Virus record (IMG/VR): IMGVR_UViG_3300050821_005794
Length of the DNA: 20,000 bases
Strand: one strand, 5' to 3'
Source: an uncultured virus (IMG/VR IMGVR_UViG_3300050821_005794)
Taxonomy: Duplodnaviria > Heunggongvirae > Uroviricota > Caudoviricetes
Of this stretch, positions 9,631-20,000 are shown in pieces. The position numbers were made by a program, and so were the translations under genes. How positions within the stretch are numbered: the first letter of the stretch is position 1; each line of letters starts with the position of its first letter. Below the pieces are notes generated by a model, which made no database searches, was not told the origin of the DNA, and saw only the letters and a list, made by a program, of their open reading frames with translations.

Positions 9631-10470
9631 CTAAGGTCTTAAGGAAGAAAACATGTCGCAGCAGTCTCGTTCGCCAACTGCGATGGTTCCATCTGACTGA
9701 AGCCTGTCTTGAAGTTTTGGGTCTATTCTAACAACCGGATGCGTGCAACCAAGAAGACCATTAATATCTTTGGCCGCGAACTTGCAATGCCAACACTCGC
9801 GTGGCGGAACATTTTCTTCATCCGTAACAAAGCCCGAAGTTGGCGTGCCGTCTTTAAGCGGAGCCGGAGAGCCTTCGCGTTTGTTTGTTAGGGGAATCAC
9901 TCCTGCCGAAGTGAACATTAGAACGCCACTAGGATAGACTAATCCTTCATACCCGACTTGGCCTTCGGATTTAGAGTTGAATGTGTTGTGTAAAAATGAT
10001 ACGGTTGAGCCGTGGCCAACGATTAGAATAGGTTTGTTCAACTTCTGAACAATTGCAGCCACATCATCAAAGAATTTAGCCTGTCGATTGTCAAACTGGT
10101 TGAGTGATTCGCCGCCAGGAATCTTGAGTGAGCGGTTCTTGATGTACTTGTCTAGGGGATAGTCGGCTTTGGATTTGCCTGTAAAATCTCCAACATTCAG
10201 GGGCCGCAAGCGCTTGTCTACGTGGCTTTCGCGAATGTCTAGAATACTTTGCAAAATTTCGCGAGTTTCTTTTGAGCGGTCTAGATCATCCGAGATAATT
10301 AGCGGGAACTTTATGCCGGTACCTTGCAGGAACAATGCTGATTGGCGGATTCCGTCGCGGCCTTCGGGCGTTAGCTGTGCGTCTGGACCGTTCGACCAGC
10401 TACGATAGGTATTGGCTTGGTTTCCGCCAGTTTTTCCGTGGCGAACTAAAAACATAATTGGGTTTATGAT
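9631..10470 (-). CDS. Histidine phosphatase (phosphoglycerate mutase-like) family protein with a C-terminal Cys-rich domain
   Basis: LVRHG, LTPEG, SDDLDRS, PGGESL and IVGHG motifs; C-terminal ECWHC...GCTHP...DCC. Start is either ATG 10455 or ATC 10470 (after GGGGGT). Confidence 0.85.
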   Translation of the reverse strand: MINPIMFLVRHGKTGGNQANTYRSWSNGPDAQLTPEGRDGIRQSALFLQGTGIKFPLIISDDLDRSKETREILQSILDIRESHVDKRLRPLNVGDFTGKSKADYPLDKYIKNRSLKIPGGESLNQFDNRQAKFFDDVAAIVQKLNKPILIVGHGSTVSFLHNTFNSKSEGQVGYEGLVYPSGVLMFTSAGVIPLTNKREGSPAPLKDGTPTSGFVTDEENVPPRECWHCKFAAKDINGLLGCTHPVVRIDPKLQDRLQSDGTIAVGERDCCDMFSSLRP

Positions 10471-11204
10471 GGCCGACCCCCGATAACGGAGTGTTTGTAG
10501 ATTTTTGAAATGTGGGACAAGAAATAATCTTTGGACCAAATACGCTTCATAAAATTGCACGTATTGCAGCACGGGGCCACATTATCTGTGCGGTATCCTA
10601 TTTCGTTATTGATCCGGTCTACTCCATTGTAGGTAAAAGAACCATTTGATTGGCGGGAATATTCTGTTGATGGCGGGATACCGCAGTAGACGCAACAGCG
10701 AGTGACGATATTGAAAAACTGTTCATCCGATAAATCCCACTCTAAACCACGTTTGGTTGCTTCTCGTTTATAGCGTCCGATTACTCTATTTTTAGCAGCT
10801 ACTCCGAGACCCGCAGTTCGCTGTTCTTTTTGTAAGCATCCGCAACTTCTAGTATTACCAAGAAGATGTGGAAGTGCGACGGTTGTTATATTTCCGCAAT
10901 CGCACTTACAAAGATACATCTGTCCTTTAGTCTTGCTGTAGCCCAGAAAAGCGGTCGCCAATAATCGGCCATTTCTGTAGCCTGACCAATCCTTTTCGGG
11001 GAACTTCTCGCACTTACAACTTTTGACGCAGACATTTCCTTTTCGAATGTTTCCTGGTCGCGCAGTTGTTTCTTCGCCGCAATTTTTACATTTTACAATC
11101 CATGTAGTTAGAAATCCTGTCGGAGTCTTAAAGGGAATTCCTTTTTTGACAACAACGAGATTATCCTTTATAGGATAGTTTTGAAAATTAGGTGTTAAAC
11201 GCAT
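10464..11204 (-). CDS. Free-standing HNH homing endonuclease
   Basis: CKCDCG...SCGCL zinc modules, then CVYCG...YNGVDRINNEIGY...NVAPCCNTCNFMK. Likely ATG at 11204, directly after the upstream stop. Confidence 0.85.
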   Translation of the reverse strand: MRLTPNFQNYPIKDNLVVVKKGIPFKTPTGFLTTWIVKCKNCGEETTARPGNIRKGNVCVKSCKCEKFPEKDWSGYRNGRLLATAFLGYSKTKGQMYLCKCDCGNITTVALPHLLGNTRSCGCLQKEQRTAGLGVAAKNRVIGRYKREATKRGLEWDLSDEQFFNIVTRCCVYCGIPPSTEYSRQSNGSFTYNGVDRINNEIGYRTDNVAPCCNTCNFMKRIWSKDYFLSHISKIYKHSVIGGRPS

Positions 11205-11206
11205 GA

Positions 11207-12244
11207 CTAGAAGATCATCCAAGGGAGCTGGAAAGGCCAAGCGGGGCCAGGGTATAGACCCCCGACGGTAGGTTCTATGACACCTCGGGACGGGTAGAAA
11301 CCGGAATTATCGCGCTCGCGATCACCCTGCATCTTGGCATTCATCAGACTTTCTTTCCACATTCTGTACTGATCCTGAAATTTTCCCCGAACACCTTTGT
11401 CTGTTGAGTGGCTGTACGCCAAAGCTACGAATCCATCCTTGAAATACTTGATGAAATCGTCAGGTATGGGTTCTAGCGTTTGGTTGAACGATGTGAATAG
11501 CCCGTTAGAGAACGCGAATGGTCTGTACTGAGCGAATAAATTAAATTGGTAGACAACTCCTACTTGCGGCGGAATAGGATAGCAGCGAATGCCTTGGCCT
11601 TTGGGGTTGATCGCCGTCCAAATGACTGTTCCGTCTGTTACGGTTGTAGCGACCGTGTTGGGACTGTTCTGTGTGGGATATGCCAATGTTATGGGCCACG
11701 AAGGTTGGCTGCCCCCAGTAATTCCGTACCCTGTAACCGACCAAAAGTTACCATTAGGGTCCTGAATTTGAAGGATAGGATTTGCCGGAGTAACAGTTAC
11801 GCCAATCGGACTCAGAATTTGTACATTCGCGCCGGGCCACACGGAGTACTGAAGCTGATCATTTGGCAGCCACGAGACTTGGCCAGGGATTCCATACTGT
11901 GCCGAAGTCATCATCAAGTCTTTGACAACTTCGATAGGCCAGATAGGTTTGGGCAGGGCCGTATTGTTTATATCTATTAATGCACCGTTCTCTAGCCAGC
12001 CAAGATTGACAACATTTAGAGCGTAGTCTTGCTGCCACGAATTCGTATACACCAGAGGCAATTTGAACCTATTCCACTTCCAGTTGAAAACTTGTGCAAT
12101 AATTTCAGTCATCGTATCATTACAGATACTCAGCACTGGGCCTAGCGTAGCCCCGCCAGCAGGAACTTGCAGAAAGGGCGCAATTTCAGGAAATGACCGC
12201 CCATGAGCAACAATATCTGAAATTTTAACTGTACTATTAGGCAA
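11207..12244 (-). CDS. Head-tail adaptor-like protein, paralog of 8689..9621 (TTG start, ~345 aa)
   Basis: SD AGGGGT then TTG at 12244 (MPNSTVKISD). Shares FNWKWNR...QQDYA...GWLE and IRCYPIPPQ...PIPDDF motifs with the downstream paralog. Has an internal module ending VTDGTVIWTAI. Confidence 0.7.
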   Translation of the reverse strand: MPNSTVKISDIVAHGRSFPEIAPFLQVPAGGATLGPVLSICNDTMTEIIAQVFNWKWNRFKLPLVYTNSWQQDYALNVVNLGWLENGALIDINNTALPKPIWPIEVVKDLMMTSAQYGIPGQVSWLPNDQLQYSVWPGANVQILSPIGVTVTPANPILQIQDPNGNFWSVTGYGITGGSQPSWPITLAYPTQNSPNTVATTVTDGTVIWTAINPKGQGIRCYPIPPQVGVVYQFNLFAQYRPFAFSNGLFTSFNQTLEPIPDDFIKYFKDGFVALAYSHSTDKGVRGKFQDQYRMWKESLMNAKMQGDRERDNSGFYPSRGVIEPTVGGLYPGPAWPFQLPWMIF

Positions 12245-16073: not shown

Positions 16074-16095
16074 TAGGACTCCATTGTGGTATAAT
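16067..16095 (+). promoter_or_regulatory. Consensus sigma70 promoter for the inverted HNH gene
   Basis: TTGACA (16067-16072), 17 nt, TATAAT (16090-16095) with a TGn extension. Confidence 0.85.
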
Positions 16096-16116
16096 ACTCT
16101 ACTATTGAGGCTTACG

Positions 16117-16743
16117 ATGGCTAAGAAACGCGGTAAATGCAAAGATATGAGTGGTGAGCGCCACAACCGCTTACTTATTTTATGGCGGTGGTATGATCCT
16201 ACTAGCAAACGAGCTAGATGGTTGTGTCTGTGTGATTGTGATAACTATATTGTTGCGACAGGCAAAGATGTTCGCCAAAGAAAAGTTCAGAGTTGTGGTT
16301 GTCTGCGAAGTGAAATGTCTGCCGAAAGAGCTAAAAAGAACTCGGTTCTGAATACATTACCAGCAGGAGAAATGGCTTTCAACCAACTTTTCACAAACTA
16401 TAAATTTCATGCTGGCAAAAGAGACCTACCATTTGTGCTGTCGCGAGAGGAATTCAAAATTCTTACGAAAGGGGACTGTTTTTATTGTGGGGCGGCCCCA
16501 TCTCAATGGTATCATCGCGGCCACAAAAGCGGTTCGTACATTTACAATGGTATAGACAGGTTAATAAATTCCGAAGGATATTATCTAAATAACTGCGTTC
16601 CTTGTTGCGGTGTTTGTAATGATATGAAAAGAACACGTTCGGAATCGGGCTTCATAAAAGCATGTCAAGCTGTCGTAGAACATCAGAAGAGGAGAGCCGA
16701 AGAATTGTTCCGACTCTCCCTCCCTAAAATTGCTACTGCTTAA
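16117..16743 (+). CDS. Free-standing HNH homing endonuclease, convergent with the capsid gene
   Basis: SD GAGG then ATG 16117. CLCDCD...SCGCL and CFYCG...YNGIDRL...NCVPCCGVCNDMK motifs. Its stop overlaps the capsid stop (TTAA 16740-16743). Same architecture as 10464..11204. Confidence 0.85.
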   Translation: MAKKRGKCKDMSGERHNRLLILWRWYDPTSKRARWLCLCDCDNYIVATGKDVRQRKVQSCGCLRSEMSAERAKKNSVLNTLPAGEMAFNQLFTNYKFHAGKRDLPFVLSREEFKILTKGDCFYCGAAPSQWYHRGHKSGSYIYNGIDRLINSEGYYLNNCVPCCGVCNDMKRTRSESGFIKACQAVVEHQKRRAEELFRLSLPKIATA

Positions 16744-16760
16744 CTGACTGCGCTTGTTGC
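16740..16760 (-). CDS. Major capsid protein, last exon (ATSAVS*)
   Basis: Follows terminal G 16761 and joins in frame to ...LRYID. Confidence 0.75.
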   Translation of the reverse strand, partial: ATSAVS

Positions 16761-16977
16761 CAGAAGTGTTACCGCGTACGCGGGTTAGATCATTTCTGTC
16801 TAACTCTTACAGTTACGTTTCCTGTAAGCTCGGACTATCGCATCACCCCCGAAGGGTGCCCTCTCGCTTAGTCTCTCAGGCTACGATTTCTCGCTTGCCC
16901 CTTGTCGGCATTGCAGCTTCCAAGTCAATTAGAGTGGGTTGTCATTTCCGCATTTCGGCGGAACGAGACTGAAATCA
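16761..16977 (-). ncRNA. Group I intron E in the capsid gene, ORF-less, 217 nt
   Basis: P1 GAU|UG...CAGUC with U.G at the splice site; P3 CCCACUC/GAGAGGG; P7 GAGACUA/UAGUCC; UUCG-capped P8; P9 hairpins; ends in G. Confidence 0.88.
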
Positions 16978-17097
16978 ATCAATATAGCGCAAACGTTGGG
17001 TTGTATCGGGTGGTAAACTAGCAGTGAAGTGAACACGGTAGCTAGTCCAGCCGGGTATCAAACCAGACGGATCGGCTACGCTTAAGGGTGCATTTTG
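16978..17097 (-). CDS. Major capsid protein exon (40 codons)
   Basis: QNAPLSVADPSGLIPGWTSYRVHFTASLPPDTTQRLRYID; the DP...GW motif matches the C-terminus of N4-gp56-like capsids. Confidence 0.85.
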
Positions 17098-17312
17098 CCG
17101 GAATTGTTACCGCTTTCGCGGGATCAGTCATTTCTGCTGATCTCTCATAGTTGTGTTCCCATGAGAGCAGACTATCGCATCATCCCGAAGGATGTTCTCT
17201 CGCTTAGTCGTTCACGGTGCTTTCGCTTCCGCCTTGTTTGCATTTCAGCATCCAAGTCAATTAGAGAGAATTATCTACTGACGGATTACGCCATCAGGAG
17301 TCCATTTAATTG
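17098..17312 (-). ncRNA. Group I intron D in the capsid gene, ORF-less, 215 nt
   Basis: P1 AGUU|CA...UGGACU; P3 UUCUCUC/GAGAGAA; P7 ACGACUA/UAGUCU; UUCG-capped P8; ends in G. Clearly homologous to intron E. Confidence 0.9.
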
Positions 17313-17557
17313 AACTACGTTGCACTCTATGTTCCTCCAGTTACCGTCATTAATCGCGTTGTCACCACGTCCGCCAAGGCGAACTGCAATGACACCGTCT
17401 TTACCGAAAATATAAGTCCGGTACGCGACCACGCCAGACGAACTCTGATACGAAGAAGTCAACGTAACAAGGTTCGACTGGAAGAAAGCCACGCCCGACG
17501 CGGGGAATTCAAGTGTGTCGGCCAGGTCGATAGAAACGAGGTCGTCCATACGTTGTA
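17313..17557 (-). CDS. Major capsid protein exon (245 nt)
   Basis: (L)QRMDDLVSID...GVAFFQSN...YRTYIFGKDG...IECNVV; corresponds to track ORF 17286..17549. Confidence 0.88.
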
Positions 17558-18532
17558 CAATTGTATTTTAAGATGCCGCCATCTCTGACGGCTCGCTCTC
17601 ACGGTTGCCCGCGAGTTTAGACTGTATCATCTTTACTGAAGAGATTTGAAGAGTTTAGCCCGTTTTTCGTTGTTGTGTTCCCCGCTCATTCGTAAAAATT
17701 GGAGAACAACATTAGCATTATGCTTTTTGATTACCAAATACGGAAGCATGTTCAAGATAAACTTCTCTTGATTCGGTGCCCCATAGATAGCCCAATCATA
17801 TTGTTTTTTGTGTATCTCACTTCGTTTGCGGGGATAAATTGATCCTCCGTAAATAGATTTAAGATACCGAATGATCGGTTCAAAGGTGTTGGTGGCGCTT
17901 ACTTCTACGACGTAATGGTTGCCCCACTTCTCATCGCGGCACTTAATTGTGAATGTGCCTTCTGCGTCTGCCAAACCAGCATAATAGGCGTTAACTAAAT
18001 TCTGTTTTTCAGGAAAGTTTAGCGTTTCAGTCGTTACGGAGTCTTTGTGATTCGCACTGTAGCAACGAGTATACAATTCAAATCTCTTTTCGGGATTCTT
18101 TTTGCCGTTTAGGGCATAGTATTCCCGAAAGATTTTGGCTTGCTCTCTTTTTTGCTGCAAATACGGAATAATTAAGGACAGAACCCAATCTGAATGCTTG
18201 GCACCTTGCGGCGACCAAACATAGCTAGTTTTGTGTTCATCCGTAGCATCTCTGCCAATCGACCACGACCCCCCGAAATGCTTAACTAGCCACTTCATTA
18301 TGGGTAGATACGTGTTATAAATATGGAAGTCTGCTACGTACTGGCTGCATCCATTGCTATCCTCGCCGTGGCGGATATAAAGACTTCCGTCGCCGTCAAT
18401 AAGACCTGCAATGTACGCTTTAGTTTTATCCTTCACTAAGATTTCCTCGGTATTGTCTTCTATCATTAGATGCTTCCTACTGTAGAAGGGTTTCACCGAT
18501 ATAGCTAAATTTATTCAGGGCTACTTTTGTTA
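17558..18532 (-). mobile_element. Group I intron C (975 nt) with a double-motif LAGLIDADG ORF
   Basis: P1 CAGGGU|...GCCCUG; P10 GUA/UAC; P3 UUUAGC/GCUAAA; P4 UAUCGGUGAA/AAUACCGAG; P7 ACGACUG/CAGUCU; ends CAAUUG. Confidence 0.9.
17633..18436 (-). CDS. Intron-encoded LAGLIDADG homing endonuclease, two motifs (~267 aa)
   Basis: YIAGLIDGDG and YYAGLADAEG motifs, each followed by a PYL..K motif. Probable GTG start at 18436 after GAGGA. Confidence 0.92.
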   Translation of the reverse strand: MKDKTKAYIAGLIDGDGSLYIRHGEDSNGCSQYVADFHIYNTYLPIMKWLVKHFGGSWSIGRDATDEHKTSYVWSPQGAKHSDWVLSLIIPYLQQKREQAKIFREYYALNGKKNPEKRFELYTRCYSANHKDSVTTETLNFPEKQNLVNAYYAGLADAEGTFTIKCRDEKWGNHYVVEVSATNTFEPIIRYLKSIYGGSIYPRKRSEIHKKQYDWAIYGAPNQEKFILNMLPYLVIKKHNANVVLQFLRMSGEHNNEKRAKLFKSLQ

Positions 18533-18611
18533 ACCCTGGTACAGTGTGTTTTAAGATATCTACCGCAGAGTTATTGCTAGAATCGTTAAGCAAATCGCCA
18601 ACGGTGAAAGG
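18533..18611 (-). CDS. Major capsid protein exon (79 nt)
   Basis: PFTVGDLLNDSSNNSAVDILKHTVPG plus 1 nt; completes the GVIH|P motif. Confidence 0.88.
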
Positions 18612-19319
18612 TAATTGTGTTTGTAGTCCCGATTTAGATAGGCGCGACCAAATTATGGGTTGTGTTAGTTAAATCGTCACAGATCGTTGCTGTGCCCCGA
18701 TTCACATCGGGGGCGCTCTCGTCCTTGCGGGCGAGTTCAGACTCTATCTTCTGTTCATTTTGTGAACAGTCTAGCGTATTAGTCGTTACGGAGTCTCCAC
18801 GTTTATTGAGGCTGGATAAACGAAGTCTGAGTTCTTCTCGTTTTTCAGGATTAGTTCGCTCCCCGTACATAGAGATGCGAATATATTCCAAGAGGATTTT
18901 CGCCTGTTCATCTTTAATAACGAGATACGGCAGAACCCCAAGAAGTACTTTTTCCAGATTCTTCGCTCCCTTGGGCCGCCAATCATATTCTACTTTGTGG
19001 ACTGTGGACCTTCGGGATTTTGTATAGTAAACACCGCCAAAATTCTTAATGAGCCACTTCATCAACTTTTCGTTTGTATTATAAACGCTGAGTCTGTGAT
19101 TCATCATCCAGTAATCCGTATTCAAATACTTACGGGTTTTCTGTAATCGGCGGTAAATACTAATACAACCTTCACCATCAATAAGGGCGGCCAGATACGA
19201 CCATTTTGTTTTATCGTTTGTCATTTGGAGTTTCCTCGGTATTGCCTTTCAACTTAGATGCTAACTTGGTTGAAAGGGTTTCACCGATTTAGTTAGATTT
19301 TACATCCACCATTTCATTA
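18612..19319 (-). mobile_element. Group I intron B (708 nt) with a single-motif LAGLIDADG ORF; terminal nucleotide A
   Basis: P1 CAUCCAU|...GUGGAUG; P10 UGAAAUG/CCUUUCA; P4 AUCGGUGAA/AAUACCGAG; R CCGUAACGACUAAU; S AAGAUAGAGUCUGA; ends CACAAUUA. Confidence 0.88.
18634..19224 (-). CDS. Intron-encoded LAGLIDADG homing endonuclease, single motif (196 aa)
   Basis: YLAALIDGEG, KNFGG and LPYLVIK motifs; SD GAGGA. The C-terminal ~55 aa are encoded by the ribozyme core and P9 region. Confidence 0.92.
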   Translation of the reverse strand: MTNDKTKWSYLAALIDGEGCISIYRRLQKTRKYLNTDYWMMNHRLSVYNTNEKLMKWLIKNFGGVYYTKSRRSTVHKVEYDWRPKGAKNLEKVLLGVLPYLVIKDEQAKILLEYIRISMYGERTNPEKREELRLRLSSLNKRGDSVTTNTLDCSQNEQKIESELARKDESAPDVNRGTATICDDLTNTTHNLVAPI

Positions 19320-19557
19320 ATGGATGACTCCGGCCATTAAACTTTCTGCCTCGTTGAAGGGCAGCACTGCTCGGCCACCGAGTGATTGAACTTGTGCGCG
19401 AATATTGGATAGCGCCAAGGACGTGCCGCCAGCAATCTTTACGGAAACCGCACTGTCGATGCTGTTAGCACCATCAGCTACGGCTCGTACGATTGCGGAC
19501 AGGGTTTGTCCAAGACGATAACTAAGTTCGCGGCCAACGTTCTCTACAACTGGATCA
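19320..19557 (-). CDS. Major capsid protein exon (238 nt), N4-gp56-like
   Basis: Manual translation DPVVENVGRELSYRLGQTLSAIVRAVADG...MAGVIH. The DP.....L......T pattern and IHP motif recall N4-gp56-family capsids. Confidence 0.85.
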
Positions 19558-20000
19558 CATATTTGTTTTGGATTTCCGCATCACTGCGGGATCGCTCTTA
19601 TGGTCACCCATAAGGTTCAGTCTCTATCTTTATTTCTTGAATTGACTAAGTTGATGAGCAATCTCACATCTTCCTTCGGGCATTGCAATGAGCCCCAAGC
19701 GGACAAAAGAGAGAAGTAACTTTGCTTGTTCTTTTTTCGCAATCAGATAAGGTACCATCTTCAGGAGAAATCTTTCAATAGGTTTATTTGTGGAAAGCGA
19801 CCAAGTATGTTCCCACTTTCTGTCTTTGCTGCGCAAAAAGGAAACAAGGCCGCCACCGTAAGTTTTCTGCATAATCTTCGGTATTCTTTTGACCGAATTT
19901 CCTGCCGAAATTCGCGGCTTATACCACACTCCCGAACCTCTCGAATATTCTGATTGCTTAGTCTCATATATTCCCAAACTACCTTCGCCATCAAAGAAAC
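19558..20000 (-). mobile_element. Group I intron A, 3' part (5' end outside the window)
   Basis: S-like AAGAUAGAGACUGA directly after the ORF stop; P9 CUUAUGG-GUGA-CCAUAAG; CCGCA-GUGA-UGCGG; ends AAAUAUG before the exon. Confidence 0.85.
19630..20000 (-). CDS. Intron-encoded LAGLIDADG endonuclease, C-terminal part
   Basis: The frame is open to the window edge and reads (G)FFDGEGSLGIY...; contains YGG and VPYLIAKKEQA motifs. Confidence 0.9.
   Translation of the reverse strand, partial: FFDGEGSLGIYETKQSEYSRGSGVWYKPRISAGNSVKRIPKIMQKTYGGGLVSFLRSKDRKWEHTWSLSTNKPIERFLLKMVPYLIAKKEQAKLLLSFVRLGLIAMPEGRCEIAHQLSQFKK

Follow-up and report, generated by a model that had tools for sequence, protein, structure and literature searches.

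The stretch of viral DNA analysed here (the window, 20,000 nt) carries on its minus strand, from position 20000 down to about 16740, a phage major capsid gene split by five introns, designated A to E. The gene comprises window positions 16740-20000 (minus strand) and L003:4787-5862, its start lying outside the window at L003:4787. Exon 1, which is likewise outside the window, was taken from that second sequence (G001, locus L003), an IMG/VR record identical to the window over the 10,641 bases they share, and it matches the major head protein family phrog_1357 (E = 4e-9). Exon 2 (19320-19557, minus strand), mapped by tblastn, consists of 79 codons and one further base and ends in ...GVIH, with CAT as the last codon. 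Exon 3 (18533-18611, minus strand; 79 nt) encodes PFTVGDLL...VPG, and the last exon (16760-16740, minus strand) encodes ATSAVS followed by a stop. All six exons are intact. Upstream of the capsid gene there are a portal gene and a likely scaffold gene, and between these two, on the opposite strand, lies a DNA methyltransferase gene (phrog_56; L003:3081-3779, minus strand). Among cultured phages, Tunturiibacter phage Tunturi_3 has the closest capsid protein (64.7% identity), encoded by an uninterrupted gene. The runs in which the sequence is found are soil metagenomes. A megablast search of the region against 50,697 phage records gave no match, and the intact capsid protein, used as a query against bacterial genomes, found just two weak Streptomyces matches (39% identity over 73 residues), so that no host can be named from that scan.

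Two types of intron are represented: A, B and C share one and contain LAGLIDADG genes, while D and E belong to the other and are ORF-less. Intron B (18612-19319, minus strand), a group I intron, is 708 nt long, contains a LAGLIDADG ORF and has A as its final base. Intron A has a total length of 1202 nt and begins outside the window; its 3' part occupies 19558-20000 (minus strand) and ends with a G at the terminal (omega) position, 19558. Intron C (17558-18532, minus strand) is of the same family, has a two-domain LAGLIDADG ORF and also ends in G, at 17558. Intron D (17098-17312, minus strand) has its omega-G at 17098, and its junction, NVV/QNAPLSVADP (here and below a slash between exon residues or bases marks the splice site), was confirmed by L010. 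The D-like intron E (16761-16977, minus strand) was read against the C-terminus ...IDATSAIS of L009. Relatives have anything from no intron to four or more in the capsid gene, distributed over roughly a dozen sites, and introns of the B type are patchy, ie present in some close relatives and absent from others. Free-standing HNH or endonuclease VII-like genes (phrog_374, phrog_1035) occur in the window at 16084-16743 (plus strand) and 10464-11240 (minus strand). One such gene lies directly after the capsid gene on the opposite strand, adjoining introns D and E, and this gene and the two ORF-less introns could form a partnership akin to collaborative homing.

On the minus strand the boundaries of intron B read ...atccat/taatgaaatgg... 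and ...cacaatta/cctttcacc, with A 18612 (T on the plus strand) as the last intron base and 18611 as the first exon base. Among 42 related viral loci, 36 are uninterrupted at this site, and all 36 read H/PF; the other six carry an intron either at the B site or 5 nt upstream. Given H/PF in every uninterrupted homologue, the mRNA must join CAT/CCT. This join restores the reading frame and gives GVIHPFTVGDLL, which is colinear with the 36 uninterrupted homologues. When all in-frame joins were tried by script against an intact homologue, a single option was obtained for intron B, having U at the end of the 5' exon and A at omega, and any other choice of splice sites would leave an insertion or a deletion at H-P. 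The 3' end of the intron aligns with the conserved tail of the family, which ends in G in introns A and C, and A 18612 sits exactly at the omega-G position of these siblings, between P9.0 and P10. The earlier note had ended intron B at this A, had reasoned that GVIH-PF can be restored only by CAT/CCT, had aligned the end with that of intron C, and had taken P10 as support for the 3' site and the G-C pair of P7 as retained; coordinates and bases were as given there, and each of these points is borne out by the comparisons reported here.

The secondary structure is that of a group I ribozyme with its full set of core helices (all positions on the minus strand). The 5' exon strand of P1, CAUCCAU (19320-19326), faces the internal guide sequence (19303-19316), in which GUGGAUG (19309-19303) is the P1 strand and UGAAAUG (19316-19310) the P10 strand. 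P1 is a 7-bp helix of AUCCAU(C) with GUGGAU(G), and U19320 forms a U.G pair with G19309 at the splice site, as in all six of the introns ending in A that are described below. P10 is formed with CCUUUCA, the first seven bases of exon 3, and has six of seven positions paired and one C.U mismatch. The P3 5' strand, J3/4 and the P4 5' strand lie at 19283-19297 (P3, 19297-19292; P4, 19287-19283). The 5' strand of P7 (18781-18786) is A-[C bulge]-G-A-C-U, the bulged C being C18785, and G18784, the guanosine-binding G, pairs with C18740 of the 3' strand, AGUCU (18739-18743). There follow the AA of J7/9 (18736-18737), proposed as the P9.0 partner of U18614 and U18613, the P9 hairpin (18718-18735), which has a GNRA loop (GCAA), and the P9.1 hairpin (18695-18712), with the loop GUGA.

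Covariation within the family agrees with this model. Over P7, P9 and P9.1 together, 96% of 247 cells are paired and 13 of the 19 pairs have changed on both sides; the latter applies to five of the seven pairs of P9, which is 98.9% paired, and to all seven of P9.1. None of 500 shuffles scored as high, and slid controls reached 28-45%. Pairing is found in 77 of 78 cells of P3, 65 of 65 of P4 and 39 of 39 of P6, in seven, four and five versions of the helix, respectively. P8 is a hairpin in each sequence, the hairpins being out of register in the alignment columns. In L013 both sides of P9.0 have changed together, AG with CU. The guanosine-binding pair is G-C in all 13 family members aligned, five of which end in A. 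Inspection of P7, J6/7 and J8/7 found no change that tracks omega-A, and members with A and with G at omega can be identical there. The P7 pair directly below the binding pair is a non-standard A.C in three of the 13 (L014, L037, L033_90), and by eye it is C.A in intron A of L003; this layer of P7 seems to be loosely constrained in the family. At gathering thresholds no Rfam model matches the window. Below the gathering score of 50, RF00028 matches intron B with 23.2 bits (E = 0.0058), intron D with 24.8 bits (E = 0.0019) and an ORF-less family member in L035 with 38.6 bits (E = 1e-6).

The ORF of intron B (18634-19224, minus strand) encodes a single-domain LAGLIDADG homing endonuclease of 196 amino acids and overlaps the ribozyme from P6' to P9.1. 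It matches PF00961 (E = 7e-5; 24.1 bits against a cut-off of 23.1) and phrog_5046 (E = 6e-22), and its motif is LAALIDGEG, in which the acidic residue is kept (LIDGEG), as in active endonucleases. The ORF was also considered as a truncated two-domain gene; this was rejected, single-domain ORFs of 143-196 amino acids being the rule in the family. In all family members the endonuclease ORF runs through P6', P7, P3', P8, P7', P9 and P9.1 (in intron B, window 18634-18800, minus strand), and about 55 endonuclease codons double as ribozyme core sequence. In many members the UAA of the conserved tail is the stop codon of the endonuclease.

The base at 18612 was checked by comparing contigs of four runs (X1 to X4) with positions 16700-20000; X1 and X2 may be the samples from which the window was assembled. 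The contigs of the DNA runs X1 (about 37x) and X2 (about 34x) show no variant at 18612, at a level, that of contigs, which hides rare variants. A 243-nt contig of X3, an RNA library of a third study, matches 18539-18781 with no differences, and the intron also occurs in contigs from two metagenome projects. The X3 contig is the sole RNA-library contig on this phage; it crosses the 3' splice site unspliced and could derive from precursor, from an intermediate or from contaminating DNA. X3 yielded no spliced contig, a result that at the level of contigs does not amount to absence. In X4, a DNA run of another study, introns A and C of a near-identical phage are covered and 18809-19474 is not, at a depth of 2-5, which makes the gap uninformative on intron B. 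A further contig of this soil sample in X1 (depth 14.6) skips the ORF: in it the 5' end of a B-like intron is followed directly by the P7 region (joint 18792 to 19280). It lies in a diverged capsid gene (flank PFDEASKSF) and its 3' end is outside view; the joint appears to represent an ORF-less derivative at the same site.

Selection on the protein was estimated from L003 and L008, both of which carry an omega-A intron and both of which have intact spliced reading frames. The pN/pS ratio between them is 0.135 downstream of the site and 0.139 upstream, with synonymous sites near saturation. Purifying selection on the downstream exons means that the exons after the intron are translated, and this in turn requires exact removal of the intron. 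Protein conservation and selection taken together thus point to exact exon ligation.

Introns of the B type with an ORF were found at the B site in two other loci, L008 (669 nt) and L050 (665 nt), each with A as its last base. Relative to the window, exon 2 of L008 is 87% identical and the capsid of L050 only about 35%; the three introns are 59-64% identical over the intron. In L008 and L050, changes in the P10 guide strand are matched by changes in the 3' exon (UUU/AAA against AAA/UUU), and this locates the 3' splice site on independent grounds. In L033 and L035 the same site is occupied by an ORF-less intron of the other type, which ends in G. Three more family members, at other sites, end in A (L022, L013 and L063; P1 7-9 bp, P10 4-5 bp); L063, which has a P1 of 7 bp and a P10 of 4 bp, was found by a scan with core and tail. 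The total is six omega-A introns at four sites. In a census of the capsid genes of the fetched loci, restricted to introns of 60 nt or more, 22 of 27 mapped introns have a U...G option; the five that have none (B, L008, L050, L022 and L013) are all U...A. The scan with core and tail, which also brought up L073, gave 13 loci, with G as the base following the tail in 11, A in two and C or T in none, several of the G loci being copies of one intron. One site is seen in both states, since the intron of L022 ends in A and that of L073, inserted at the same place (after GGGGT, 5 nt upstream of the B site), ends in G.

On a tree of 21 intron endonucleases omega-A needs four changes, and well-supported branches force at least two. 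Among the first six positions of P10, five pair in each of the five omega-A introns tested, against a median of four in 11 omega-G siblings (one-sided Mann-Whitney p of about 0.01, for introns that are few and related). A metagenome scan with the 5' pattern gave five loci and no new orthologue at the B site. L049, L056 and L059, which were found via the pattern search, are introns with a different core in an unrelated gene (exon end ...MKCFNIH); they share the 3' strand of P1 and the bases following it with intron B because their exon ends in the same ATCCAT.

On this evidence intron B probably (we would put it at about 0.8) functions as a mobile group I intron within a phage capsid gene and has A as its natural last nucleotide, and the family of ribozymes to which it belongs seems able to join exons without the usual terminal guanosine. 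The earlier note had offered a natural omega-A intron in an essential gene as one of two possibilities, and the agreement of three runs, the A endings of the same-site orthologues and of three other members, and purifying selection on the protein all speak for it. Splicing would follow the ordinary two-step path, with an external guanosine at the intact G-C site opening the 5' splice site. For the second step the 3' splice site would be positioned by P9.0 and by a comparatively strong P10, and a ribozyme of this type would tolerate a purine other than G at omega. The cost would probably be some loss of rate, with or without help from a protein. The G-C site has to be preserved for the first step, which uses external guanosine, and this may be why the site has not been adapted to A. 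The change from G to A at omega on at least two occasions within the family suggests that it is nearly neutral or mildly useful. In classical work on the Tetrahymena intron, replacing omega-G by A reportedly impairs exon ligation severely unless the binding pair is altered as well. By that mutant work an unchanged G-C site should handle omega-A poorly, and this counts against the explanation we prefer.

A more radical mechanism can be put forward tentatively, with the odds against it. The second step might be independent of docking of a terminal G altogether, P9.0 and P10 alone placing the site and omega being any purine, with protonated A (A+) perhaps binding the G of the binding site at its Hoogsteen edge. 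In that case omega-A would have been favoured repeatedly, abolishing 3' hydrolysis, circularisation and reverse splicing while ligation persists. Selection for A can also be proposed by itself. If omega-A blocks those side reactions, which depend on omega-G, capsid mRNA would not be lost to dead-end products and the A would be kept as useful. This proposal overlaps with the reading of intron B as a functional intron with a natural terminal A and differs from it only in claiming selection for A; we consider it doubtful. The A is indeed kept in same-site orthologues as divergent as the three compared above, and PMC8146996 proposes the same rationale for the mitochondrial intron ND5-717. The recurrence of omega-A in the family is predicted equally by neutral transitions, however, and most members keep their G, including introns A and C of this very gene, while the site shared by L022 and L073 has been found in both states.

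It is unlikely that a protein has to assist the second step, whether a host factor or the LAGLIDADG product of the intron itself in the role of a maturase, and that this step is slow enough to limit capsid synthesis; the earlier note had raised slow or protein-assisted splicing that could throttle the capsid. LAGLIDADG maturases occur in fungal mitochondria, and all six omega-A introns have an intact LAGLIDADG ORF; the omega-G siblings carry the same kind of ORF, however, so that it is not specific to omega-A, and in intron B the retained acidic residue of the motif is that of an active endonuclease. The unspliced RNA-library contig across the 3' splice site would fit slow ligation, but may be carry-over of DNA. 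Introns A and C have omega-G on the same core, and any throttle would therefore act through one intron of the five.

We think it very improbable that the true 3' splice site is an upstream G, with the terminal A being exonic. The earlier note had dismissed the nearest upstream G because it would break the frame. This holds for G18628, which is the nearest, and for G18629, but G18630 and G18648 are in frame and stop-free, and their use would add six and 12 residues, respectively, after GVIH. Moreover, the sequence before G18648/18649 resembles the G-ending tail of members such as L037. It lies within an extension peculiar to intron B (18631-18694, minus strand) and absent from L008 and L050, which consists of a small hairpin (CACAG with CUGUG) and then a 7-bp stem (CGAUUUA with UAAAUCG) enclosing a second, G-ending copy of the family tail; the extension looks like the remnant of recombination with another family member. 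The reading frame allows these alternatives; what excludes them is the invariant H/PF together with P10, P9.0 and the orthologues. An insertion between H and PF is found in none of the 36 uninterrupted homologues. The guide cannot pair with the exon start created by either alternative, as against six of seven positions with CCUUUCA, and the alternative G residues lie in or beside the predicted 7-bp stem. For L050 and L013, the 40 nt upstream offer no in-frame alternative ending in G that is free of a stop codon.

The remaining possibility, that the A was introduced by sequencing or assembly or is a recent, inactivating mutation of a dead genome, would be natural to suspect at a single base where G is almost universal and where X1 and X2 may be the very samples behind the assembly, but its probability is close to negligible, and the error or point mutation allowed for by the earlier note is refuted for practical purposes, given that three runs of three studies (the independent RNA-library contig among them) and two metagenome projects have the same base and none has G at 18612 at contig level, that five introns in other viral contigs also end in A, L008 and L050 among them, and that the six exons are intact and under selection as strong downstream as upstream.

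A natural omega-A is already known, and intron B joins this rare kind. ND5-717 of hexacoral mitochondria (sea anemone, mushroom coral) ends in A and its exons are ligated exactly in vivo, according to PMC8146996 and PMC6545197; like intron B it is a natural group I intron ending in A in an essential protein-coding gene. It is obligatory and vertically inherited, has whole genes inside P8 and is thought to depend on host factors, as described in PMC3679873. The introns described here, in contrast, are mobile, belong to phages and encode homing endonucleases, and close relatives may have or lack them; their omega-A arose at least twice beside omega-G siblings that have the same core and lie in the same gene, and is read from sequence. 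With settings as different as a mobile phage intron and an obligatory organelle intron, the likeness to ND5-717 is claimed as one of kind only. What the phage introns add is the recurrence within one mobile family, the same-site pair with A and G, and the G-ending siblings in the same gene. These omega-G siblings (introns A and C; L016, L018, L024, L037, L042, L045, L073 and others) have the same P3-P4-P6, the same P7 with its bulged C and G-C pair, the GNRA-capped P9 and P9.1, the A/C-rich tail and the LAGLIDADG ORF running into the core, and differ by the terminal G.

Self-splicing introns are found in essential genes of phages T4 (td, nrdB, sunY), SPO1 of Bacillus and Twort of Staphylococcus; they are often mobile by means of an encoded endonuclease, and several may sit in one gene. 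These classical phage introns are not known to end in a base other than G. The present family differs from them in matching RF00028 weakly (23-39 bits against the threshold of 50). An engineered Tetrahymena intron is said to splice with adenosine (Been and Perrotta 1991, Science 252:434), for which the G-C binding pair reportedly had to be changed. Like intron B it is a group I intron that works with A in the nucleoside-binding site, whereas the present family retains the G-C pair in all 13 aligned introns. A literature search on phage introns without a terminal G, or on a G414A mutant, found no relevant paper in sources that mostly exclude subscription journals.

Group I splicing is regarded as universally dependent on a terminal guanosine; the natural exception that we found in print is a single organelle intron lineage. 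In the phage family A has replaced G at least twice, at four insertion sites, and the guanosine-binding pair is unchanged. If docking of a terminal G is indeed not needed, a single capsid gene would provide a natural matched set, the omega-A intron B beside the omega-G introns A and C, for measuring what omega-G is needed for. The small ribozyme would be a clean, harmless system for exchanging A and G and for following, in the presence or absence of the encoded protein, exon ligation, hydrolysis at the 3' splice site and the formation of circles. There is also a consequence for annotation, in that intron finders which demand a terminal G will misplace capsid junctions of this kind or call the gene broken.

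Some capsid genes of relatives also contain insertions of 40-56 nt, none a multiple of three, which start after U and end in G and whose removal restores the conserved protein exactly. They were found in L005 (between residues 30 and 31, 50 nt), L014 (30/31, 46 nt), L033 (52/53, 40 nt), L024 (20/21, 43 nt, and 307/308, 46 nt), L042 (20/21, 56 nt) and L045 (20/21, 41 nt). Each contains a guide that pairs with both exons (in L024 at 307/308, P1 of 8 bp and P10 of 7 bp) and has no P4-P9 core. Translational bypass was considered for L005 and L014 and rejected, as landing at a matching codon leaves the frame unrestored. The insertions may represent mini-introns that lack a core and are removed in trans by the ribozymes of sibling introns. 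No natural precedent for such trans-excised elements was found in the literature; engineered "spliceozymes" have reportedly been described (PMC4094466). All six loci with mini-insertions also have full-length introns, and of the approximately 26 loci that have no full-length intron none has a mini-insertion.
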